A DNA stretch of 64,000 nt. Origin: a virus. Within the stretch, counting starts at the first letter, position 1. The number at the start of each line of letters is the position of its first letter. Shown piece by piece: positions 31,982-64,000 of this stretch. The notes under the pieces are model-generated. The model saw nothing but the letters and a program-made list of their open reading frames with translations. It had not been told where the DNA came from and searched no databases. The translations under genes were made by a program, and so were the position numbers. The stretch lies in UHGV virus genome UHGV-0020956. The stretch is one strand, 5' to 3'.

Positions 31982-32055
31982 GGAACAATATTTCAACTGG
32001 CAGAAAATTCGGCTCATAACCGAAAAGTTATAGGTTCGAGTCCTATTTGTTCCAC
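31982..32055 (+). tRNA. tRNA-Met (anticodon CAU; could be elongator, initiator or lysidinylated Ile)
   Basis: canonical cloverleaf: acceptor ggaacaa/ttgttcc, D-stem tttc/gaaa, anticodon stem ttcgg/ccgaa loop ctCATaa, T-arm atagg-ttcgagt-cctat. Confidence 0.85.
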
Positions 32056-50399: not shown

Positions 50400-51434
50400 A
50401 TGGCAGACGAAAAGAAAAGAAATAATCCACTTTTAGACCTTGAAATTGAAGAAATGGTAGGAGGTTTAGCTGGTCAACGTGTTTTGTTATATTCTGGCAA
50501 TTCATTGGGAAAGACAACACAAGCTATGAAATGTGAAAGACCTTTACTTTTAATGACTGAGAGTGGTGGTAATGGTGTTAGGGGTTATAAAATTGCTATT
50601 AATTCTTGGGCTGATTTTACAACTAATGTAAATTATCTTACAGCACCACAGACAAGTAAAAAAATGCATGAAAAGTTTTTTACAGTAATTATTGATACTG
50701 CGGAGAACCTTGTTGACCTTTGTGAACAGTCTGTATGTAAAGAGTTTGGTGTAAGAGATTTAAGTGAAATTGAAGGAAAATCTAATGGTTATAAGATTGC
50801 TAGACGTAAATTTGCAATGCAGATTAATAAACTTACATCACAGGGATATTTTATTATTTTCATTGCTCACGAGGAAGTTGACGAGAATCACGTTGATGAA
50901 TTAACAGGTGAAACTACAACTTTTGTTCAGCCTAAAGGTTCTGGAAATGTTAAATCTTCTATGCGTATGATTAGAGATATTTGTGATTTTACAATTTATC
51001 TTAAATCAAATGGTATCGACCCAGAAACAAATGAAACAATAATGTCTACTGGTATTTGTAAGCAGACTTCTCATGTATTTGCTAGAAGCAGATATGCTAT
51101 TCAGACATTCATTGACCCATTTACTGCAAAGAATATGTGTGACGCAATGGAAAAAGCTATTAAGAAATCTGCTGAAAATGAAAATATTGGTCTTACTACA
51201 TTTAAGCCTTATGAAAACGTAACAACTAAAGAGGAATGGTTAGCTTTAATTCAGCCATATGTACAGAAACTTTGGAAAACTTATCCAGAATATATTAATC
51301 AAGTTGTTGCCGACCAGTTAGGAAAGGGTAGGAAGATTAGTTCTGCTACAGATGATGAACTTGCTTGTCTTGAAAGTATTTATAATAATTTTGTGGACTT
51401 CTGTTGTGACAGAGGAATTGTTGTAGAGGTGTAA
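50400..51434 (+). CDS. RecA-like AAA ATPase, Sak4-like recombinase candidate
   Basis: Walker A LLYSGNSLGKTTQ; Walker B-like IIFIAHEE; ~340 aa. Confidence 0.45.
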   Translation: MADEKKRNNPLLDLEIEEMVGGLAGQRVLLYSGNSLGKTTQAMKCERPLLLMTESGGNGVRGYKIAINSWADFTTNVNYLTAPQTSKKMHEKFFTVIIDTAENLVDLCEQSVCKEFGVRDLSEIEGKSNGYKIARRKFAMQINKLTSQGYFIIFIAHEEVDENHVDELTGETTTFVQPKGSGNVKSSMRMIRDICDFTIYLKSNGIDPETNETIMSTGICKQTSHVFARSRYAIQTFIDPFTAKNMCDAMEKAIKKSAENENIGLTTFKPYENVTTKEEWLALIQPYVQKLWKTYPEYINQVVADQLGKGRKISSATDDELACLESIYNNFVDFCCDRGIVVEV

Positions 51435-52658: not shown

Positions 52659-54164
52659 ATGCTTTATTCAGCGTCAGATGCTTCAATGTGTTTGGGGGTA
52701 TTATTACAGAATCCCTCTTTAACAATCAGTAAGAAGTTCCCTATTAATTCAGATGATTTTAAACCCATTTTATTCCATGAGATTTTATATAAATCTATAT
52801 CATGGTTATTTAAAAATGGTGCAGAACAAATAGACGAAATTGTTTTGGATAAATTTTTACAGAATTATCCAGAACAGTTAGAGGTTTGTACAGATAACAA
52901 TTATCTTGAATTTATAGTAACTATTAAGAAATTGGTTAATGTGGATAATTATGAACTGCATTATAATATTATTAGAAAATATAGTTTACTTAGAAAAGCT
53001 AAAGAATTAGGTATTGACATTACAGAATTTTATGACGAAACTAAACCAGAAGAAACAGAAGTAGAAAAGTTTAATCGTTTTTCCATGCAAGAAATCCTTA
53101 ATAAGATTGAGGGCAAAATGACCTCTCTTAGAATGGAATTTAATACAGAATTATGTAGAGAAACATTAAGAGCAGGTGATAAATGGGAAGATACTTTAAA
53201 TGGTTTTGAAAGTGAACCTGTTATTGGTGCTATACTTCAAAGTAAATATTTAACTACTTTATACAGAGGTTGGCAAAGAGGACATTTATTATTAAGGTCT
53301 GGTTCATCTGGACAAGGAAAGACAACAACTTCCATTGGTGATTTATGTAATGTATGTGCTAATCGTTATTGGGATTTTGACGAAGAAAAATATGTAGATA
53401 ATCCTTATAAATCTGGTGATGGATTTATGATTAATACAGAAATGGATTTATCAACTGAAATTCAACCTAAATTTATCTCTTGGATAAGTGGTGTTCCATA
53501 TCATAAAATCCTTGACGGAAAATATAATAAATTTGAAAAAGAAAGACTGATTGAAGCAGGAAAGATTCTTTATGAAAGTCATATTGAATTATTCGACCAA
53601 CCAGATTTTACAGCTACAAAGTTAAAAGAAATATATCGTCAATGTCATTTATGGGGAGCAAGTTATTGTTTTTTCGATTACATTTGGGATAATTCAGAGT
53701 TTGGAACTGAATATAAACAAATGACAAGTATTCCAATTCGAGAGGATAAGGTTCTTTTCCAGATTGCGACTACACTTAAAAGTTTATCTGAGGAATTTAA
53801 TATAGGTACTTGTACTGGTACTCAGTTAAACGGTAAAGAGCAAGAAAATGAACTTTTAGATGAAAGATGTATTTATGGCTCTAAACAGATTAAGACTAAA
53901 CTAGATAATGGTGCTATATTATCTTTCCTTAGACCTAAAGAGTTGGAACTTGTAGATACTTTAATTAATCGAAAAGGTTTTGGAACCAAGAAAAGACCTA
54001 CACATATTCTTCATAATTTTAAAACAAGATTTTCACGTTATGGACAGAATATCAAAGCATGGATTAATGTGGATATGGGAACTGGTAGAATAAGTGATTG
54101 CTTTTGCACAGACCAATATAATCAGCCGATTAACGTAGATAAGACAGATATTAAGTTAGGTTAG
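52659..54164 (+). CDS. DnaB-like replicative helicase
   Basis: N-terminal DnaB-N-like region (ASMCLGVLLQNP..FHEILYKSI..GAEQIDEIVLDKFL) and Walker A LLRSGSSGQGKTT. Confidence 0.6.
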   Translation: MLYSASDASMCLGVLLQNPSLTISKKFPINSDDFKPILFHEILYKSISWLFKNGAEQIDEIVLDKFLQNYPEQLEVCTDNNYLEFIVTIKKLVNVDNYELHYNIIRKYSLLRKAKELGIDITEFYDETKPEETEVEKFNRFSMQEILNKIEGKMTSLRMEFNTELCRETLRAGDKWEDTLNGFESEPVIGAILQSKYLTTLYRGWQRGHLLLRSGSSGQGKTTTSIGDLCNVCANRYWDFDEEKYVDNPYKSGDGFMINTEMDLSTEIQPKFISWISGVPYHKILDGKYNKFEKERLIEAGKILYESHIELFDQPDFTATKLKEIYRQCHLWGASYCFFDYIWDNSEFGTEYKQMTSIPIREDKVLFQIATTLKSLSEEFNIGTCTGTQLNGKEQENELLDERCIYGSKQIKTKLDNGAILSFLRPKELELVDTLINRKGFGTKKRPTHILHNFKTRFSRYGQNIKAWINVDMGTGRISDCFCTDQYNQPINVDKTDIKLG

Positions 54165-54800
54165 GAGTTCGTATAACATGATAACAGACGTTCTAAGGCT
54201 TTTAGCCATACAAGTTATTAAACTGAATCTTAAGGCAGTCCGTAAATGGATTTGCTTTTTAGATAAAATATATAATAAAATTAAGTAAACAAGGAGGATT
54301 TACAAATGGCAGTAACAGGAACTTTAAGGGAAATCACAGGTGATAAATACTTTTTTGTCAGCGCATAGGGAAACTTGTGCGTAGTGGTGCTTTTGGCATC
54401 CAATACTACTTGAATTGCTAGGAAACCTTAAAGTCATTCAAACTACAACGTAATACTTTAAATGGTATAAGCGTGAATGTGACGAAAGTAGAAAAAATTG
54501 AATGAATGGTGCATGGTTAAATCCTAAACACTGAAAAATAGGCAATTAGCAGGTAAGTCCGAAAGGAAAACTTCAACGACTATTCCTCTTGAGGGAAGTA
54601 CACACAAGCGTGTGGAAGTGGGTAGACCCTAACATATAATGTTGAGGGATAAGATATAGTCTGTGCTTGTATGAAAGTACAAGAAGTTCATTAGAGAACT
54701 GCATAGGAGTAGCGAACCTATGTGAACGACAACCTCTAATTATAACTAAAGTAACTTACGGTTTTTATATATTATTTAAACTAAAGTAATTCTTTTTATA
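54165..54800 (+). ncRNA. group I intron ribozyme core (5' part of IStron-like element)
   Basis: conserved R-like uucaacGACUA (54572-54582) and S element AAGAUAUAGUC (54651-54661) forming P7; P/Q-like agcgcauagggaaa / gugcguag; GC-rich island. Confidence 0.6.
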
Positions 54801-54851
54801 ATTTAACTTGACATTTATATAAATTTATGTTATATTAATTTATGAAAGGAA

Positions 54852-55976
54852 GTGATATTGTTGGAAAAGGGTTTTAAGTATAGAATTTATCCAAATAAGA
54901 AACAGCAAGAGTTAATACAGAAAACGTTTGGCTGTTGTAGATATGTTTATAATTATTTCTTAGATAAAAGAATAACTGAGTATAAAGAAAATAAAAAGAC
55001 TTTAAGTTTTTATGATACAAATAAAATGCTTACTCAATTAAAGAAAGAAAACGAATGGCTTAAAGAACCAGATAAAAATGCTTTGCAAATAGCGTTAAGA
55101 AATTTAGATAAAGCTTATAAAAAATTTTTTAAACAACAGTCTGGCTATCCTAAATTTAAGTCTAAGAAAAATAATTATCAATCTTATACTACAAGTTGTA
55201 ATAAAAAAGTGCATAAAGATACAATAAGGATTGAAAACAAACATATCAGACTTCCAAAATTAGGTTTTGTAAAAATTCGTGATAAACAAGTTCCGCAAGG
55301 AAGAATACTTAATGCTACTATATCGCAAGAACCAAATGGACATTATTATTGTTCGTTATGTTGCACTGATATAGAATTTCCACAATATCCAAAAACAAAT
55401 AAAAATGTTGGAATAGATTTAGGAATTGTAGATTTTGCAATCTTATCTGACGGTATTAAGATTAAAAATCCTAGATTTTATGAAAAGTCAGAAAAGAAAC
55501 TTGCTAAGTTACAAAAAGAATTATCGAGAAAAACAATCGGTGGCTCTAATTGGAATAAAGCAAGAATTAAAGTTGCAAAACTATATAAACATATATCTAA
55601 TCAACGCAAAGATTTTTTACAGAAATTAACTACTAATTTTGTAAGACAATATGATATTATTTGTATTAAAGATTTAAGTATTAAATCTATGAAAGAAATA
55701 AGTTCAAAAATTCGTAACAAACATTTGGAAGATGTTTCATGGTTTGAATTTCGCAGAATGTTGACTTATAAATCTACATGGTATGGAAAGATATTATCTG
55801 TAATTGATAGATATTTTCCTTCTTCACAAATTTGTCATTGTTGTGGTGCTAATGGAGGTAAAAAGTCTGTTGAGATTAGATACTGGATTTGTTCTAACTG
55901 TGGTTCAAAATTAGATAGGGACGATAATGCTTCTATTAATATTTTGAATGAAGGAATGAGAATTTTAAGTGTTTAA
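54852..55976 (+). CDS. tnpB: IS200/IS605-family TnpB (RNA-guided nuclease-type transposon protein)
   Basis: 374 aa; N-terminal KGFKYRIYPNKKQQELIQKTFGCCRYVYN; C-terminal Zn finger CHCCG..CSNCGSK and RuvC-III DRDDNASINILN. Confidence 0.85.
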   Translation: MILLEKGFKYRIYPNKKQQELIQKTFGCCRYVYNYFLDKRITEYKENKKTLSFYDTNKMLTQLKKENEWLKEPDKNALQIALRNLDKAYKKFFKQQSGYPKFKSKKNNYQSYTTSCNKKVHKDTIRIENKHIRLPKLGFVKIRDKQVPQGRILNATISQEPNGHYYCSLCCTDIEFPQYPKTNKNVGIDLGIVDFAILSDGIKIKNPRFYEKSEKKLAKLQKELSRKTIGGSNWNKARIKVAKLYKHISNQRKDFLQKLTTNFVRQYDIICIKDLSIKSMKEISSKIRNKHLEDVSWFEFRRMLTYKSTWYGKILSVIDRYFPSSQICHCCGANGGKKSVEIRYWICSNCGSKLDRDDNASINILNEGMRILSV

Positions 55977-56080
55977 ATAATATATAAAAACCGTAGGAAC
56001 TACGGGGTTAGCTTGGTAAATATTCTTGCAATAGTAAGAAGTTCCCAAGAATTGCGTAACTTTAGTTATGTGAGGTTCAG

Positions 56081-56554
56081 ATGATGCAGTTAATGATTAT
56101 GCTTGAAGATGAACCAGATTCAGATGTATTAAAGGATACATTAGAGGGTTTATCTGGGGAATTGGATACCAAAGCAGAAAATTATGTATACGTCATTAAA
56201 GAGTATGAGGGTCAGATTGAGAATATCAAGAAAGAGATTGAAAGACTGACCGCAAGAAAGAAAACAGCAGAAAACGCTATTGAAAGACTTAAGAACGCAT
56301 TATTATATGCTATGCAGACTACAAATACTAAAAAATGTGGCGGTAATTTATATACTATCTCAGTAAGAAATAACGCACCACAGTTAGGGCAGTTAGACGA
56401 AAGTCGTATTCCAGAAAAGTATTTTAATGTAGTTACTGAAAAGAAACTGGATAAGAAAACTTTGTTAGCTGATGTAAAAGTTGCCGAAAAAGAAGGAAAA
56501 CATATTGATGGTGTTGATGGTTTAAGAGTTAGTCAGTCACTTTCAATTAAATAA
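56081..56554 (+). CDS. siphovirus Gp157-family protein (replication/recombination module accessory)
   Basis: 157 aa, coiled-coil central region; size and position typical of Sipho_Gp157 next to Sak/SSB genes. Confidence 0.45.
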   Translation: MMQLMIMLEDEPDSDVLKDTLEGLSGELDTKAENYVYVIKEYEGQIENIKKEIERLTARKKTAENAIERLKNALLYAMQTTNTKKCGGNLYTISVRNNAPQLGQLDESRIPEKYFNVVTEKKLDKKTLLADVKVAEKEGKHIDGVDGLRVSQSLSIK

Positions 56555-56891: not shown

Positions 56892-58019
56892 ATGGGTATT
56901 GACGCAAAACGTTTAACTAAACAACTAACTATAGACGATTATAGAAAAGTTGCTGTATCTCTAGGGGCTATAGTGATTCACGAAAATGACAGAGAAATAT
57001 TATTTACTTCTATATGCCATGAAAAAAATCCAGACGGCAAAAAGAATAAACTTTATTTCTACAAAGACAAAAAAATATTTCTCTGTTATATATGTGATGT
57101 TTCTTATTCTGTTTATAGCTTAGTTCAGAAAAGAAAAAAACTTCTGGGAGAGGAATATACTTTCCCAGAAGCATTACAATATGTTTGTGATGTTTGTAAT
57201 ATTCCTTATGACGATATACAAAGGATTCATAAGAAAAGCACAAAAGTATATAATTGGGAAGATGATTTAAGTAGATATATCCGTATAAAAAACGGAGATT
57301 CACTCACACAAACTTATGATAAAGCTATCTTAGATTTTTTCCCAAAAATATATCATTCCTCTTTTCTTAATGATGGCATAAGTATTCAGACTATGGAAAT
57401 GTTTGGGATAAGATTTTATCCGTATGCTCAACAAATAGTAATTCCTGTTTTTGATGAAAACGGAGAATTGGTTGGGCTACATGGTAGAAATCTCAATCCA
57501 GAGTTAGTAGAAATGGGTTACAAATATCTTCCAGTTAAACTTGTAGAGAATAATGCTGAATATAGGTTTAACGCTTCTACTGTCTTGTACGGACTGAATT
57601 GGACAAAAGCAAACATAGAAAACACCAAAGAAGCTATTTTATTTGAAGCACCAAAAAGTGTTATGCAAATGGAAGATATATTAACAGTTAATAATACTGT
57701 TGGCATGTTTGGAATGAATTTGCAGAACGCCAAAAGGAATAAACTTATCCAATTAGGTGTTGAAAGAGTTGGAATTGCTTTAGATAAACAGTATCATACG
57801 GTATATGATGATAATGGTGAACTTACAGAAGAATATGTTAAATGGAAAGCAAAAGTAAACAAAATCATTGATAAGTTTAAAGGTTTTGTAAAAGAGATTT
57901 ATGTTATCTATGACGATAATGATAAAGAGCCTTTGTTAAGCTATAAAGATTCTCCCTCTGATAAAGGCAAGGAAGTATGGGGAAAATTATATGAAAAAAG
58001 AGAAATTGTTGAACAGTAA
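56892..58019 (+). CDS. DnaG-like DNA primase (CHC2 Zn finger + TOPRIM)
   Basis: SICHEKNPDGKKNKLYFYKDKKIFLCYICD (C-H-C-C) and TOPRIM-like ILFEAPKSVMQMED / ALDKQYHTVYDDNGE. Confidence 0.55.
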   Translation: MGIDAKRLTKQLTIDDYRKVAVSLGAIVIHENDREILFTSICHEKNPDGKKNKLYFYKDKKIFLCYICDVSYSVYSLVQKRKKLLGEEYTFPEALQYVCDVCNIPYDDIQRIHKKSTKVYNWEDDLSRYIRIKNGDSLTQTYDKAILDFFPKIYHSSFLNDGISIQTMEMFGIRFYPYAQQIVIPVFDENGELVGLHGRNLNPELVEMGYKYLPVKLVENNAEYRFNASTVLYGLNWTKANIENTKEAILFEAPKSVMQMEDILTVNNTVGMFGMNLQNAKRNKLIQLGVERVGIALDKQYHTVYDDNGELTEEYVKWKAKVNKIIDKFKGFVKEIYVIYDDNDKEPLLSYKDSPSDKGKEVWGKLYEKREIVEQ

Positions 58020-58227: not shown

Positions 58228-59052
58228 ATGGCAGAGAACACAACTGAATTAAAAGAAGTAGAGTTAGAACTTAACAAGGTGGTTTTAACAGGAACTATCA
58301 CAGAGGATTTTACTTATCATCATTCCACAAAAGGAACAAATATTTATAAGAGTTTCATTTGTGTAAAAAGAGATAGCGGTACTGATGATGTGCTTCCTAT
58401 CATGGCTTCTGAAAAAGTCCTTAAAGAAGCGTTTTCACTTACCGAGGAAAAGTCCTACGGCTCACAGAATTACACAGTCTGCGTTGAGGGAATTATGGCT
58501 TCTTACAATGAGCATATTGAGAACGGCAAGAGTAAGTTAATTTTATTTGTTAAACCAAATAATATCTTAATTGTTGCTGACAATACAAAACCGAGTAATA
58601 ACATTGAAATTACTGGTTATATTGTAAAAGATGTGATTGTAAGAAAAACCCCTGGTCTTAAAGACGAGAAAGGTATTTGGGTTAAACAGGAAAGAACCAT
58701 TGCTGATGTTATGTTAGGTGTTAATATCAACACGAATAAACGTTGTGTATCTTATTACATTCCTTGTATCTTTTGGGGTAAAGCTGCTTCTGCTATTGGT
58801 AAATTAGGAATTGGTACACAGGTTAATATTCGTGGACGTGTTCAGAGTAGAAAGTACAATAAGAGATATGAAAATGGCAATATTGAAGAAAAGGTTGCTT
58901 ACGAAATTTCTGTGGCAGATGCAATGTTAGTTGACAAACAGGGTAATGTAAGTAATTTAGTAAAAGTTGAACCAAAGAAGCCAGTAAAAGAAAAACGTAA
59001 TAAAGTCACAGTAAAAACTAGGCACAATCCAAACGGATTCAACCTAGACTAA
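58228..59052 (+). CDS. SSB-like OB-fold ssDNA-binding protein
   Basis: 274 aa; CIFWGKAASAIGKLGIGTQVNIRGRVQSRKY matches the SSB pattern (VVFGKLAE..LRKGSQVYVEGRLQTRKW). Confidence 0.5.
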   Translation: MAENTTELKEVELELNKVVLTGTITEDFTYHHSTKGTNIYKSFICVKRDSGTDDVLPIMASEKVLKEAFSLTEEKSYGSQNYTVCVEGIMASYNEHIENGKSKLILFVKPNNILIVADNTKPSNNIEITGYIVKDVIVRKTPGLKDEKGIWVKQERTIADVMLGVNINTNKRCVSYYIPCIFWGKAASAIGKLGIGTQVNIRGRVQSRKYNKRYENGNIEEKVAYEISVADAMLVDKQGNVSNLVKVEPKKPVKEKRNKVTVKTRHNPNGFNLD

Positions 59053-59119: not shown

Positions 59120-60835
59120 ATGCGAGTAAAAGAAATTTTGCCTAACATTGATTTATCAAGATGGGAGCAACAGTATTTAGAAGCATTTGGAATTAAAGAT
59201 GTTGAAGAATATTTGTATCCAACTTTTAAATATGTTGAACGCCCAGAACGATATGATAACATGGAAGAGGGGAAAGAACTATTATACAAGATAATAAGTA
59301 ATCAGACTAATCATATAGGAATTATACAAGATTGCGACGGTGATGGTTTGTTTTCTGCTGTTATGATGTATAATTTTCTTAAAAACGATTTAAAAGTTAA
59401 GAATCCTATTTTCATATATTTTCATTCAGATAAAAAACATGGTATTACAGAAAACGTACAGAACTGGGTACTACATAATGAAATCAATTTGTTAATTGTG
59501 CCAGATGCAGGTAGCAATGACTATCAAGCACAAGAAGATTTGAATTTCCTTAATACCCATATATTGATAATAGACCATCACAAGATTGCTCCGTATAAAA
59601 GGGAATATATTAGTAATTATGAAACAGTGGTGATTAGCAATCAACAAGGTTGGGTAAAGAATAAGTGCCTTAGTGGTACTGGCGTTGTGAATAAATTTAT
59701 TAAATATTATTGCAATAATAATCCAAGTTGTAAAGCAAGTGCAAGTGTAAAATATGTAGACTTGGTAGCATTTAGTTTAGTATCTGATAATTGCAATATG
59801 CTTTCACAAGAGAATAGAGATTTTCTAATGGTAGGCACTTCTATAGCAAATATGCAGAACGAATTTTTAACTTATCTGAACGAACATTTAAACTATACTA
59901 ATGAAGTTACTTGGAAATCAATAGGGTTTATAATTTGTCCTTATCTTAATGCAGTATGTAGAAGTAACAACCAACAGTTGAAAGCTGAATTGTTTTTTTG
60001 TTTTACTAGCGGTCATTCAGAAATGTTTGAAAGTGTACTAGCCAAAATTAAAGACCAAAAAGCTATACAGGATAAGATTGTTGCTGAAACAGTTAAAGAC
60101 GGCTGTAGCATGGTTCTACGCATTGATAACGTACCGTTGTTAGGAATCAAGTACCTTGAAAATGTGGAACAGCACCCTTATAGTGGCTTGATTGCTAATA
60201 AGCTGAAAGACGAAACTCCGATTGTGTTTGCTACACATGAAAGTAATGGATTTGTAACTGGTTCTTGTCGGTCTGATTATGAAATTCTTGAATTATGCCA
60301 AGATAGTGGGTTATTTGAAATTGCACAAGGTCATGATAAAGCATTTGGAATTGGATATAAAAAAGAAAACGAAGAAAAGATTTATAAATATATTCAAGAT
60401 AAATTCACCAACGAAAAAATAGAATTACCGTCAATTCCAGTTGTAAAAAAATATGATTTGGAAAAAGAAGATTTTTCAAAATGTCTGTTCGGATTTGCAG
60501 ACCAATGGGAATATATCTGGAATAACGATTTGATTAGACCAGTTTTTGCCATTGATTTTAAATTAAAAATTTCTGATGTAGAGGTAATCGGAAAAGACAA
60601 AAACACATTACGGTTTAGTATAAACGGGGTAACGTTCATTAAATTTAAAGAGAGCGAGAACTGGTTAGATGATATGTCAGAACGGCTTGTACTGGCTTCT
60701 ACTATCTGTAACCTATCTATAAATTATTGGAATGGTCGAAAATATTACCAAGCTATTATTGAAGAATGGGAAATTAAAGAAATATCCCAAGAAGTAAAAG
60801 AAATTAAACCACTTTCATGGGATGATGTGTGGTAA
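59120..60835 (+). CDS. RecJ-like DHH-family phosphoesterase (ssDNA exonuclease)
   Basis: DHH motifs IQDCDGDGLFS, VPDAGSND and IIDHHK. Confidence 0.6.
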   Translation: MRVKEILPNIDLSRWEQQYLEAFGIKDVEEYLYPTFKYVERPERYDNMEEGKELLYKIISNQTNHIGIIQDCDGDGLFSAVMMYNFLKNDLKVKNPIFIYFHSDKKHGITENVQNWVLHNEINLLIVPDAGSNDYQAQEDLNFLNTHILIIDHHKIAPYKREYISNYETVVISNQQGWVKNKCLSGTGVVNKFIKYYCNNNPSCKASASVKYVDLVAFSLVSDNCNMLSQENRDFLMVGTSIANMQNEFLTYLNEHLNYTNEVTWKSIGFIICPYLNAVCRSNNQQLKAELFFCFTSGHSEMFESVLAKIKDQKAIQDKIVAETVKDGCSMVLRIDNVPLLGIKYLENVEQHPYSGLIANKLKDETPIVFATHESNGFVTGSCRSDYEILELCQDSGLFEIAQGHDKAFGIGYKKENEEKIYKYIQDKFTNEKIELPSIPVVKKYDLEKEDFSKCLFGFADQWEYIWNNDLIRPVFAIDFKLKISDVEVIGKDKNTLRFSINGVTFIKFKESENWLDDMSERLVLASTICNLSINYWNGRKYYQAIIEEWEIKEISQEVKEIKPLSWDDVW

Positions 60836-61752: not shown

Positions 61753-63042
61753 ATGGGAAAGTTTATAGATATGACTGGTTGGAGAATGTCAGAACATGGT
61801 GTTCCAAATAGTAGGTTGACTGTTATTGAAAGAGCAGAAGATACTTTTAGTCCAAAAGGTTCGAGAATTACTAATTGGAAATGTAAATGCGATTGTGGAA
61901 AAATAAAAGTTATACAAGGTACAGCATTAAGAAAAGGTGTTGTTTTATCTTGTGGCTGTTATCATCTTGAGTTGCTTTTAGCAAGTGTTAAAAGTAGAAA
62001 AATGGTTAATAAATATGTTGATAAAGGTGACTATTTAGAAGGTTATGACGGAAAAGGTAATTGCTTTTTAATTGATAAAGACGATTATAATAAAGTAAAA
62101 GATTACCGTTGGAATATGGACAATCATGGATATTGGTGTTATAGCACTTCTTCTAAAGAAAATGGTCGAACCAGAATAAAAATGCATAAATTGATTTGCC
62201 CCTCACCTTCTAAAGATTTAGTAGTAGACCATTATAATAGAAATCGTTCTGATAATAGAAAAAACAATTTGTTTTTAAAAACACCTAGAGAAAATGGAAT
62301 AAATAAAGAAATTCCTTCTAATAATACTTCTGGATTTATTGGTGTCAGCCAAAGAAAAGACGGGTATTGGGTAGTAAGAATTAATACTGACGTTGATAAA
62401 ACAAGGATGATTAGTAGTTTTGCAACAAAAGAAGAAGCTTTAATATGTAGATTAAACTTTGAAAAATTGTATTACAAAGAAAATGCTCCACAAAGACATT
62501 TATTTGAAGAATATAATATAACAGAAGAAGGTGCAAAAGAATATTGTAATCAAATTTTTAAAAGAATTGATAATACAAGTGGAACAATGGGTGTTTTTAA
62601 AAGAGAAAATAAAGATACATGGCGAGTAGAAATTAGGGTAAAAAATGAAAGAAAAAATTTTGGTAGTTTTACAAATAAAGAAGAAGCTATAAGAGTTAGA
62701 CTTCTTATGGAAAAATATTATTATGGTGACAATGCTTTACAGAAAAATCTTTTTGATAAATATAACATTACTTTAGAAGAAGCTATAAAGTTTCATGATG
62801 ATTTTTATAAAAAGAAAGAAATAGAAAAAGAAAAGAAAAAAGATAAAATAACAGGTGTAAGCTATTCAGAAAAAATAAAAAAATGGGAAGTTTATATTTG
62901 TGTTAATAGAAAAAATATATACTTAGGTGCTTATAAAGATAAGAATGATGCTATTATAGCGAGATTAAAAGGTGAAATAAAATATAGAGGTAAGGATAAC
63001 GCACCACAGAAACATTTATTTAAACAATACGGAATAGAGTAG
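61753..63042 (+). CDS. HNH homing endonuclease with three AP2-type DNA-binding repeats (free-standing)
   Basis: HNH motif VVDHYNRNRSDNRKNNL; AP2-like repeats SGFIGVSQRKDGYWVVRI, SGTMGVFKRENKDTWRVEIRV, KITGVSYSEKIKKWEVYICV; flanked by duplicated gtaggtgataatatg. Confidence 0.75.
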   Translation: MGKFIDMTGWRMSEHGVPNSRLTVIERAEDTFSPKGSRITNWKCKCDCGKIKVIQGTALRKGVVLSCGCYHLELLLASVKSRKMVNKYVDKGDYLEGYDGKGNCFLIDKDDYNKVKDYRWNMDNHGYWCYSTSSKENGRTRIKMHKLICPSPSKDLVVDHYNRNRSDNRKNNLFLKTPRENGINKEIPSNNTSGFIGVSQRKDGYWVVRINTDVDKTRMISSFATKEEALICRLNFEKLYYKENAPQRHLFEEYNITEEGAKEYCNQIFKRIDNTSGTMGVFKRENKDTWRVEIRVKNERKNFGSFTNKEEAIRVRLLMEKYYYGDNALQKNLFDKYNITLEEAIKFHDDFYKKKEIEKEKKKDKITGVSYSEKIKKWEVYICVNRKNIYLGAYKDKNDAIIARLKGEIKYRGKDNAPQKHLFKQYGIE

Positions 63043-63050
63043 GTGATAAT

Positions 63051-64000
63051 ATGAGCGTAGAATTTAGTTATTTTAATTGTCATTCTCATACAGGAAAAGG
63101 TTCTAATCTTCGTATGTTAGATTGTACAATAAAGGTAAAAGATTTAATAAATACAGCTTTAGAATTAGGATATAAAGGTTTAGCAATTACAGACCATTCT
63201 TCTTTAAGCGCTCATATCGAAGCCATTCAGTATGTTAAAGAATTAAAGAAGCAAGGAAAAGATTTTATTCTTGGACTAGGTTCTGAGGAATATTTAGTTA
63301 ATTCTTTATATGATACAAAAGAAAATTATGAAAGTGGTGTGACAAAATTTTGGCATTTTATTTTTATTGCTAAAGATGAAATAGGCTATGAGCAACTTAG
63401 ACGCATTGATAGCCAAGCATGGGATAATAGCTTTTTTACTGGTAAAATGCGTAGAACTCCTATTGAAAAATCACAAGTAGAAAATATTATAAGAGAAGAA
63501 AAAGGACATTTATTAATTACTTTTGCTTGCTTGGGCGGTGAATTAGCCGCCCTTGTAAAGCAATATTTAGAAAATCCTACTAAAGAAAATAAAATGGAAA
63601 TACATCAGTTTATTACTTGGTGTATTAACCTTTTTGGAAAAGAAAATATTGGTTTTGAATTACAACCAAATACACAAGAAGAACAAATTAACTATAATAA
63701 ATTTTTATTAACTTTATCAAAAGCTTATGATATTAAAACTGTATTAGGTCTTGACTGCCATTATCTTAGAAAAGAAGATAGAAAAGTACATGAAGCCTTT
63801 ATTAAAAGTAGAGATTCTATAGATAGAGAAGTGGGTGATTTTTATAGTAGCACTTACTTACATTCTTATGAAGAAATGAAAGAAGCATTAAATTATTTAA
63901 CAGATGAAGAATTTAAAACCTTGTTAGACAATTCTTATAATTTTGCTAAAAATATTAATTTTATTGATATGGAACACACTACTATTATTCCAGAAAGAGA
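63051..64000 (+). CDS. DNA polymerase III alpha subunit (PHP domain), N-terminal part; continues beyond window
   Basis: NCHSHTGKGSNLRMLDC ... LAITDHSSL is the PHP-domain metal-binding signature of PolC/DnaE-type polymerases. Confidence 0.65.
   Translation, partial: MSVEFSYFNCHSHTGKGSNLRMLDCTIKVKDLINTALELGYKGLAITDHSSLSAHIEAIQYVKELKKQGKDFILGLGSEEYLVNSLYDTKENYESGVTKFWHFIFIAKDEIGYEQLRRIDSQAWDNSFFTGKMRRTPIEKSQVENIIREEKGHLLITFACLGGELAALVKQYLENPTKENKMEIHQFITWCINLFGKENIGFELQPNTQEEQINYNKFLLTLSKAYDIKTVLGLDCHYLRKEDRKVHEAFIKSRDSIDREVGDFYSSTYLHSYEEMKEALNYLTDEEFKTLLDNSYNFAKNINFIDMEHTTIIPER

Follow-up and report, generated by a model that had tools for sequence, protein, structure and literature searches.

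A CdISt1-type IStron inside the gp157 gene of a phage, probably an immobilised relic retained for its intron

The window, the whole stretch of 64,000 nucleotides (nt) of the virus genome UHGV-0020956 that was analysed, carries downstream of a DnaB-like helicase gene, which ends at position 54164, a gp157 gene split by a compound element that consists of a group I intron ribozyme followed by an IS605-type tnpB gene (Table 1). Elements of this design, in which a group I intron is combined with a TnpB gene, are called IStrons and were first found in Clostridioides difficile; they have been known since 2000, the CdISt1 or group A IStrons of C. difficile being reportedly those of Braun in that year, and their mechanism was dissected between 2023 and 2026. 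We consider it likely that the element in the window is an IStron of the CdISt1 type (group A, insertion sequence (IS) family IS200/IS605), that it lies inside the phage gp157 gene after codon 13, and that this copy has become an immobilised relic. An IStron extending over 54165-56080, between the helicase and gp157 genes, had been proposed earlier from the sequence alone (the original prediction). The element type was borne out by full-length homology to the C. difficile CdISt1 family and by covariation, and the poverty in open reading frames (ORFs) between the helicase stop and tnpB is as described. The right boundary proved exact; the left one lies at 54345, with 54165-54305 being ordinary intergenic DNA, and the element interrupts gp157 instead of preceding it.

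Table 1. Coordinates of the IStron, its parts and the split gp157 gene in the window
Feature	Coordinates	Strand	Basis or remarks
Shine-Dalgarno (SD) sequence of gp157, AAGGAGG	54291..54297	+	8 nt 5' of ATG 54306; sequence reading
gp157 exon 1, 13 codons (MAVTGTLREITGD), last nt U54344	54306..54344	+	Uninterrupted homologues
Target, transposon-adjacent motif (TAM)-like GTGAT abutting the left end	54340..54344	+	Family consensus TTGAT; 4/5 positions match; ends in U
P1, UGAUAAA 54341-47 / UUUGUCA 54354-60, 7 bp	54341..54360	+	Minimum free energy fold; U54344-G54357 wobble at splice site
IStron (whole intron), 1736 nt	54345..56080	+	5' splice site 54344/54345; 3' splice site 56080/56081
Group I (IA2-type) core: P2, P2.1, P3, P4, P5, P5a-d, P6, P6a, P7, P7.1, P7.2, P8, P9, P9.1, P9.2	54361..54722	+	Covariation; identity to C. 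difficile
GAACGA (54724-29, ribozyme/IS junction), then CAACCUC	54724..54736	+	CAACCUC pairs with GAGGUU just 5' of the 3' splice site
5' strands of long-range intron-form helices, AUAACUAAAG 54742-51 and CUUACGGUU 54755-63	54742..54763	+	Pair with 56060-69 and 55989-97
AU-rich inverted repeat of ~25 nt around promoter and tnpB cassette	left arm 54757..54781; right arm 55971-55995	+	Reverse-strand blastn matches
Candidate sigma-70-like promoter within the intron, 5' of tnpB	54808..54836	+	TTGACA, 17 nt, TATATT, extended TG
tnpB, 371 amino acids (aa) from TTG 54861 (alternative GTG 54852)	54861..55976	+	Pfam HTH_OrfB_IS605, OrfB_IS605, Cas12f1-like_TNB
Codon AAA, Lys270 at the RuvC-II catalytic Glu position (ISDra2 E278)	55668..55670	+	Alignment to ISDra2 TnpB
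omega-RNA-like scaffold and right end	55977..56080	+	SLa, SLb, SLc hairpins; terminal GAGGUUCAG, omega-G at 56080
SLa; SLb; SLc (right-end hairpin)	55991-96/56000-05; 56012-16/56045-49 with 56023-29/56034-40; 56054-60/56065-71
gp157 exon 2, 157 codons and stop	56081..56554	+	Pfam Sipho_Gp157

Removal of the element gives a full-length, family-typical Gp157 of 170 aa with the N-terminus MAVTGTLREITGDMMQL, while the form encoded by exon 2 alone has 157 aa and starts with MMQL. A search with the predicted spliced protein returned ten viral-contig loci with an uninterrupted Gp157, 96-99% identical across all 170 residues, in which the junction reads MAVTGTLREITGE/MMQLMIML; the original prediction had suggested that intact helicase-gp157 junctions in related phages be used to define the insertion site, and these loci do define it. 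When 54345-56080 was taken out, the window aligned by blastn to each of ten related phages as a single colinear segment of ~4766 nt (92-95% identity), and the Pfam family Sipho_Gp157 was covered over positions 1-162 of 162 by the spliced protein (138.7 bits) versus 11-162 by exon 2 alone (131.6 bits), positions 1-10 being supplied by exon 1 only. Together the colinear empty alleles and the Pfam coverage place both exons and the intron as given in Table 1. The SD sequence and start codon of gp157 are kept in the ten phages with the uninterrupted gene, and in the Enterocloster phage CB457P2, whose helicase DNA is 77% identical to that of the window, gp157 is also uninterrupted and starts MGSLREITGD-MLKLMIMLEDEPDS (MGSLREITGD/MLKLMIML). 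Compared with the related empty alleles, no target-site duplication is seen at the insertion site. At the right end, similarity is lost after GAGGTTCAG in more than 10 independent copies, with unrelated flanks beyond. Exon 1 ends with U and the intron with G56080 (omega-G), the last nt before exon 2, both in agreement with what group I chemistry requires. A boundary shifted to an exon 1 end at 54343, with the canonical left-end start TAAAT, was rejected because it broke the frame relative to the empty alleles. The suggestion that splicing restores or extends the helicase frame was also abandoned: the helicase stops at 54164 as in the relatives, gp157 has an SD sequence and ATG of its own, and it is gp157 that is restored. 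In two public contigs identical to the window (L200 and L201), Gp157 is called as a 157-aa protein from MMQL, exon 1 is missed and the ribozyme is unannotated.

The 5' 390 nt of the element fold as an IA2-type group I ribozyme. The R- and S-type elements had been placed correctly beforehand: TTCAACGACTA (54572-54582) and AAGATATAGTC (54651-54661), each unique in the window, form P7 through GACUA (54578-82) and UAGUC (54657-61). The pair GCGCAUAGGGAAA / GUGCGUAG (54361-67 / 54376-82), which had been read as P/Q-like, is really the P2 hairpin; the true P element is GAAUUGCUAGGAAA at ~54412-54425 (5' strand of P4 at 54416-21) and the true Q element CAAUUAGCAGG at ~54543-54553 (3' strand of P4 at 54546-51). 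For the covariation test, the hand-derived structure of the window copy was projected onto an alignment of 25 non-redundant relatives (68-98% identity), with partners slid by 1-3 columns and 500 shuffles as controls; ribozyme homology was assessed by nhmmer and pair counting, and the labels of the P5 sub-helices and the P9 series are our own. Over the P2-P9.2 fold, including the P3/P7 pseudoknot, standard pairs filled 92.4% of the cells (32-41% when slid), 71 of 96 pairs were changed on both sides (25-38 slid), doubly changed cells numbered 419 (50-82 slid) and the covariation score was 0.512 (at most 0.10 slid), with none of the 500 shuffles attaining any observed measure. The tested structure was partly derived from the same alignment, a somewhat favourable bias, yet the margin is very large. 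P4 and P7 are 100% paired, P3, which forms the pseudoknot with P7, is 93% paired and has four compensatory pairs, and P7.1, P7.2, P9, P9.1 and P9.2 are supported by the alignment. Every ribozyme helix is intact in the window copy.

The ribozyme matched the family profile, which includes the window itself, with E = 2.6e-109 (nhmmer). With this, the core matches in phages and the covariation, the group I signal is well outside what chance would give. By blastn of 54165-54860 against phage genomes, 171 records matched the core (54396-54726), among them the annotated intron of Clostridium phage D-1873 and many Staphylococcus Twort/K-like and Bacillus phages, and a pattern search for the R...S core retrieved 125 distinct viral sequences that follow the IA2 order P7, P7.1, GUA, P7.2, GAAGUGG, P8, AAGAUAUAGUC. 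The stretch had been called GC-rich, which holds in relative terms only, the G+C content being 33-39% in the ribozyme versus 22-31% in tnpB and ~31% in the flanks. The loop of P1 has 6 nt and lacks the ~55-nt extension with the left-end hairpin that is found in canonical copies, and the internal guide co-varies with the target among the relatives (TTGAT/GUCAG, TTTAT/GUAAG, TCGAT/GUCCGAA). No further intron or IStron copy was detected in the window by nhmmer, R/S motif searches or tblastn of TnpB. One relative (L127, ~2600-2625, alignment columns 150-172) has a 23-nt insertion in the P5b hairpin loop, which shows that this peripheral loop tolerates insertions.

Downstream of the ribozyme, the 3' part of the element can take two forms. 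In the intron form, three long-range helices bring both sides of the tnpB cassette together: AACCUC 54731-36 with GAGGUU 56072-77 (100% paired), AUAACUAAAG with CUUUAGUUAU 56060-69 (94% paired, 3 pairs changed on both sides) and CUUACGGUU with AACCGUAGG 55989-97 (92% paired). Together these helices are 92.4% paired in 17 copies, versus 31-47% when slid. In the other form, the right-end hairpins that had been predicted after tnpB (SLa, SLb and SLc) were found and are conserved, with 89.8% of the cells paired versus 24-48% slid and 11 pairs changed on both sides. As 56060-69 is used by both SLc and an intron-form helix, the intron-form helices and the omega-RNA/right-end hairpins, although both conserved, are mutually exclusive; a structural conflict between splicing and omega-RNA formation had been anticipated. 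The terminal hairpin of the window copy (-6.4 kcal/mol) is the weakest of those folded, five other copies giving -7.7 to -12.5 kcal/mol (the C. difficile copy -10.1), and the competing duplex has -19.0 kcal/mol. Experiments on the C. botulinum IStron have shown that whether the RNA is spliced or yields a guide depends on how stable the 3'-terminal omega-RNA stem-loop is (Zedaveinyte 2023 bioRxiv; Mortman and Sternberg 2026), and the weak terminal hairpin should accordingly favour splicing of the window copy. The predicted omega-RNA guide would be the first ~16 nt of exon 2, ATGATGCAGTTAATGA. The co-variation of the AU-rich inverted repeat across copies was judged by eye only, apart from its GC-rich inner end, which was counted, since MAFFT shifts the register there; ORF-flanking inverted repeats and the GAACGA junction motif have both been described for IStrons (PMC4227781). 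Small RNA models of Rfam also match element 3' ends: Ref70 (Enterococcus sRNA 70) weakly in the window (55985-56102) and in the element of Clostridioides phage ES-S-0173-01 (L003, 4738-4819), and RAGATH-18 above its gathering score just 3' of TnpB in the group B IStron of D-1873 (L001, 4314-4383) and weakly in L003. Both models probably describe TnpB omega-RNA or right-end structures.

Group A IStrons have been defined as elements that lie 3' of TTGAT, ATTAT or TTTAT, with U at -1, and terminate in TCAG, with an IA2 ribozyme carrying P7.1, P7.2 and an extended P9 (Tourasse 2014, PMC4227781); their IS part follows a GAACGA-type motif and encodes the IS200/IS605 ORF B, with or without ORF A (the Y1 TnpA) or a remnant of it, and copies with ORF B only have been published (PMC4227781). 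The window element has the IA2 ribozyme with P7.1, P7.2 and extended P9, GAACGA at 54724-29, the TCAG end, a variable 3' flank, no duplication, and ORF B. A genome scan detected dozens of C. difficile copies with a TnpB 55-57% identical to that of the window, and the ribozyme profile gave a full-length match 5' of nearly all of these tnpB copies. In a pairwise comparison with one C. difficile copy, whose ends read TTGAT/TAAAAAATAG...GGGAGGTTCAG/, the window ribozyme showed 79.5% identity over 443 nt. Among viral contigs, 63 loci with related TnpBs were found, several of them 83-86% identical and located in ~100-kb phage contigs, and the IStron of L003 splits a large gene, by eye a terminase-like large subunit gene, in frame at CTTGAT/...TTCAG/AAGG. 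Two IStron copies share one 82.8-kb viral contig: one (L161, 3001-4102) has a frameshifted tnpB with 46 in-frame stops, and in the other (L129) the TTTAT target is matched by a GUAAG guide, while P1 is short and lacks the left-end hairpin; these copies document decay and target/guide co-variation elsewhere in the family.

The tnpB gene had been predicted to be complete. Its ORF is indeed full-length with three Pfam domains, it starts at a position equivalent to the LEK/VEK start of the relatives' tnpB, and its product aligns with the ISDra2 TnpB structures 8BF8/8EXA/8H1J (E = 2e-93). The zinc-finger cysteines are present, as are the RuvC-I and RuvC-III Asp; the catalytic Glu of RuvC-II is Lys, the triad D191/E278/D361 of ISDra2 corresponding to D186/K270/D354, and the D-E-D triad of an active TnpB is thus incomplete, while an omega-RNA scaffold is predicted to be present. 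Among 120 database homologues the RuvC-II position is Glu in 119, and the sole Lys belongs to a cluster 100% identical to the window (P0001). As P0001 is found on 17 contigs (16 of them with the common helicase-TnpB-Gp157 neighbourhood), and contigs from two samples match the window over 6.1 and 4.0 kb at 100% identity, K270 is a real substitution that has become fixed in a phage lineage in circulation. The E278A mutant of ISDra2 TnpB is catalytically dead (PMC8612924), and omega-RNA processing has been reported to be RuvC-dependent (bioRxiv 10.1101/2023.11.20.567912, on RuvC-dead TnpB). The window TnpB has probably lost RNA-guided DNA cleavage and, by analogy, probably RuvC-dependent omega-RNA processing as well. 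By three-taxon decomposition, the branch omega of the window tnpB is ~0.29 versus 0.12-0.18 for sister copies, and its nonsynonymous divergence (dN) to outgroups is 0.174 versus 0.140-0.150; constraint on tnpB is relaxed, not absent, and the ORF is intact. The candidate promoter 5' of tnpB agrees with the consensus at 11/12 positions, the best in the region, and is a consensus match only.

Other transposon functions are missing too. As had been stated beforehand, no tnpA was found, neither in the element nor elsewhere in the window, by an ORF survey and tblastn; the query was an IS608 TnpA sequence, with which the positive control L113 was found (E = 2e-20). A candidate at 63423-63593 (E = 0.001) was discarded as spurious, since it lies within the gene for a PHP-domain DNA polymerase. 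The left-end hairpin (core GTGACTTTAGTC), located in the ~55-nt extension of the P1 loop in ~30 C. difficile sites and most phage copies, resembles the right-end hairpin and would on that ground be the left-end site for TnpA. It is missing from the window, where only AAATACTTTTTT lies between splice site and internal guide; the closest relatives (L124/L164 type) and L129 are also without a canonical left-end hairpin. Of the two hairpins of a mobile IS200/IS605 element, the window copy thus has the right one (56054-71) and not the left one. Most likely this copy is an immobilised relic retained for its intron.

The insertion site was compared with its empty counterparts. At ~30 C. difficile sites, as at most phage sites, the left end is directly preceded by TTGAT, the targets of the relatives being TTGAT at ~40 sites, TTTAT at 2 and TCGAT at 1, and TTGAT is the published TAM of group A IStrons and of ISDra2 (PMC4227781; PMC8612924). 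Within 30 nt on either side, the occupied allele differs from the ten empty alleles at positions -4 and -1 of the TAM only, with GGTGAT in the occupied and GGAGAG or GGAGAA in the empty alleles (Asp13 versus Glu13); more distant phages have GGGGAT. The 3' flank, the would-be omega-RNA target, is 100% identical to that of the empty alleles over 30 nt or more. The TAM differences fit an escape by IStron-free phages, and also co-conversion or chance: a difference at 2/5 positions has a rough chance probability of ~4% at ~6% divergence, and only one or two evolutionary events are involved. In the closest relatives (L124/L128/L161/L164, 91-92% identical), which lie in another gene after TTCGAT, the 3' flank ATGATG (56081-56086 in the window) and a 5' flank ending in GAT are shared with the window copy. 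The other copies have unrelated 3' flanks, and the sharing may reflect chance, selection for tolerated sites or a microhomology-mediated move.

The following course of events is proposed on the basis of group I chemistry and published IStron work. In the gp157 transcript, P1 would form by pairing of UGAU at the exon end with the internal guide GUCA, and an exogenous G would attack after U54344. The long-range helices (54731-63 with 55989-56077) would loop out the tnpB cassette and bring omega-G56080 to the G-binding site in P7, after which ligation of the exons would yield the 170-aa Gp157. Alternatively, the same 3' nt would fold locally into the omega-RNA scaffold and the TnpA right-end hairpin, and splicing would be blocked.

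Several points weigh against a spliced but immobile relic. All RNA steps have been deduced from the chemistry and literature just named. P1 includes only four exon pairs, at a target that is GTGAT and not TTGAT, and no convincing P10, in which the start of exon 2 would pair with the region of the internal guide, was found. The tnpB gene is intact over its 371 codons with a branch omega below 1 and may retain a function; Lys270 stands in the context KDL next to a conserved Asp, and the loss of activity is deduced from alanine mutants of a homologue; moreover, two other lineages without the left-end hairpin keep the Glu, so that loss of the hairpin alone is no proof of immobility. The Rfam search that had been recommended gave no group I family for 53900-56300 even at E <= 10 (RF00028, Intron_gpI, was unmatched), and cmscan of the whole window at the gathering threshold reported a tRNA and no group I intron. 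The same search missed its positive controls, the 'Group I catalytic intron' that GenBank annotates in D-1873, 5' of a TnpB gene, and the intron of Clostridioides phage ES-S-0173-01, and its negative outcome is therefore uninformative; a published IStron survey (Sternberg lab) used 14 GISSD subclass models instead of Rfam. Finally, GAGG lies 5 nt 5' of ATG 56081, so that the 157-aa Gp157 may be translatable from an unspliced transcript.

This last point leads to the reading that the insertion is never spliced, exon 1 being a dead remnant and the 157-aa Gp157 being made from ATG 56081 through the GAGG in the last 9 nt of the element, perhaps from the internal promoter. Because the SD-like G(A/G)GAGGTTCAG ends all members of the family, an ATG directly 3' of any of them may be translatable without splicing; public gene calls give 157 aa, the promoter-like site in the intron could read through and, with the GAGG, could yield a splice-independent product, and in the published C. 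botulinum IStron splicing is readily lost and takes second place to omega-RNA formation. We nevertheless regard this reading as unlikely: exon 1 and its SD sequence are intact and match the uninterrupted genes except for the two TAM differences and an additional base that some alleles have between SD and ATG, the insertion keeps the reading frame exactly, Pfam positions 1-10 come from exon 1 alone, all ribozyme helices are intact while the tnpB of this lineage accumulates changes, and the weakening of the terminal hairpin is of the kind that favours splicing. Much more improbable still is a chance nesting, in which an unrelated IS605 tnpB remnant had inserted into the P9 region of an ordinary phage group I intron outside the IStron family. 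Phage contigs abound in free-standing IA2 introns that have the same R/S core, most of the 125 distinct cores having no TnpB nearby, but homology and co-linearity with the C. difficile and phage IStrons extend through the ribozyme, GAACGA-CAACCUC, tnpB and the right end, the 5' segment co-varies with the right-end hairpin, and the boundaries of the element are those of the intron.

The remaining alternatives concern the activity of TnpB. Homing by an active TnpB and omega-RNA, as implied by the original prediction, would mean that the complex cleaves the IStron-free gp157 of co-infecting phages, with splicing and guide biogenesis competing on one transcript. The intact tnpB ORF with its good promoter-like site, the conserved omega-RNA-like hairpins, the retained RuvC-I and RuvC-III Asp and zinc-finger cysteines, and the flank equivalent to the guide, 100% identical in related empty alleles, speak for a fully active IStron. 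It is nevertheless doubtful and in our view improbable, given Lys instead of the RuvC-II Glu found in 119/119 homologues and lethal to ISDra2 activity when replaced (E278A), GAGAG or GAGAA in ten of the ten closest empty alleles where a TTGAT-like TAM is needed, the absence of tnpA and of the left-end hairpin, and the elevated dN on the window branch. Past activity is assumed in a more speculative scenario of an arms race at gp157, to which we also give little credence: TnpB and its omega-RNA would once have cut IStron-free alleles in co-infections, the survivors would have escaped by changing just the two TAM positions, from GGTGAT to GGAGAG or GGAGAA with a conservative exchange of Asp for Glu, while their guide match stayed perfect, and TnpB would then have been inactivated (E270K) because no cleavable targets were left. 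It would now be decaying, or be kept as an RNA-guided DNA binder or as a regulator of splicing, the latter option being considered because TnpB binding represses splicing in the published system.

Compared with CdISt1 and the other group A elements, the window IStron shares the 5' IA2 ribozyme, GAACGA after P9.2, the identical right end GAGGTTCAG, a TnpB with 55-57% identity, and insertion in frame in a gene, 3' of (T/G)TGAT with U at -1 and without target duplication. It differs in its host, a ~100 kb phage and not a bacterial chromosome, in its GTGAT target, in a P1 loop without the ~55-nt left-end-hairpin extension, in having no recognisable tnpA fragment, in the E270K substitution of TnpB, and in its long, AU-rich ORF-flanking repeat (~25 nt), a trait given to group B by Tourasse et al. 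(PMC4227781). With the CboIStron and CbISt3-4 (group B, IS607-type; including those of the C. botulinum phages c-st and D-1873) it has in common the order intron-tnpB-omega-RNA, the phage location, and a 3' splice site within the omega-RNA scaffold, where terminal stem-loop and intron fold exclude each other; those elements have a serine TnpA, a TGGG TAM, a CGG terminus, G at the exon end, a TnpB only ~28% identical to that of the window and a 3' region that, unlike that of the window, matches RAGATH-18. The ISDra2 TnpB-omega-RNA system (8BF8/8EXA/8H1J; Karvelis 2021) is similar in the end-to-end protein alignment, the TTGAT TAM family and a guide taken from the right-end flank, but has no intron, and the window has Lys at E278. 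The IA2 introns with homing endonucleases of Twort/K-like Staphylococcus and SPO1-like Bacillus phages belong to the same ribozyme class (core 72-74% identical over ~190 nt) and also interrupt phage replication and structural genes; their mobility, unlike that of an element in which the transposon ends are the intron ends, depends on protein-guided endonucleases encoded in loops. TldRs (TnpB-like nuclease-dead repressors) are described as old, diverged clades whose guides target host promoters. Similar to TldRs, the window protein is a phage-encoded member of the TnpB family with an inactivated RuvC site; it differs by a single recent substitution in a typical TnpB that is still within its transposon. 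For the guide flank of the window, matches were confined to the element's insertion site and its counterpart in related phages, no search for other targets having been made.

The element is located in a replication/recombination module, as had been expected. The neighbouring genes at 58228-59052, 59120-60835, 50400-51434 and 56892-58019 encode an SSB-domain protein, a DHH/RecJ-like exonuclease, an AAA_24 ATPase and a protein with a faint DnaG-like match. An HNH_3 and AP2-domain protein resembling a free-standing homing endonuclease (61753-63042) is encoded directly 5' of the PHP-domain DNA polymerase gene, which runs from 63051 to the window end; it adds a further gene of mobile-element type to the module. 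The single Rfam match above gathering score in the window is a tRNA gene at 31982-32054 (68.5 bits). An unannotated group I-like core match was seen at ~8.4-9.0 kb in the cultured Enterocloster bolteae phages CB457P2 and CB473P1-P3, which have a helicase 77% identical to that of the window and probably carry unannotated introns. The observation also hints that the phage of the window infects Lachnospiraceae or Enterocloster-like hosts.

While the IStron architecture is already known, the window provides a degenerate phage-borne member, a clean natural CdISt1-type IStron in a gut-type ~100 kb phage for which matched occupied and empty alleles are available. From these alleles both splice sites and the omega-RNA target can be placed with single-nucleotide precision and without an experiment. 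For genome annotation there is a lesson as well: the Rfam group I model is blind to this class of introns, and in all public copies seen the gene callers have reduced Gp157 to 157 aa. The dozens of related phage-borne IStrons in IMG/VR suggest that phages are an under-appreciated IStron reservoir. The window copy may represent an end-state of IStrons, in which the intron stays intact because the host gene needs it, tnpA, the left-end hairpin and the nuclease site have been lost, and the RNA switch is tilted to splicing.

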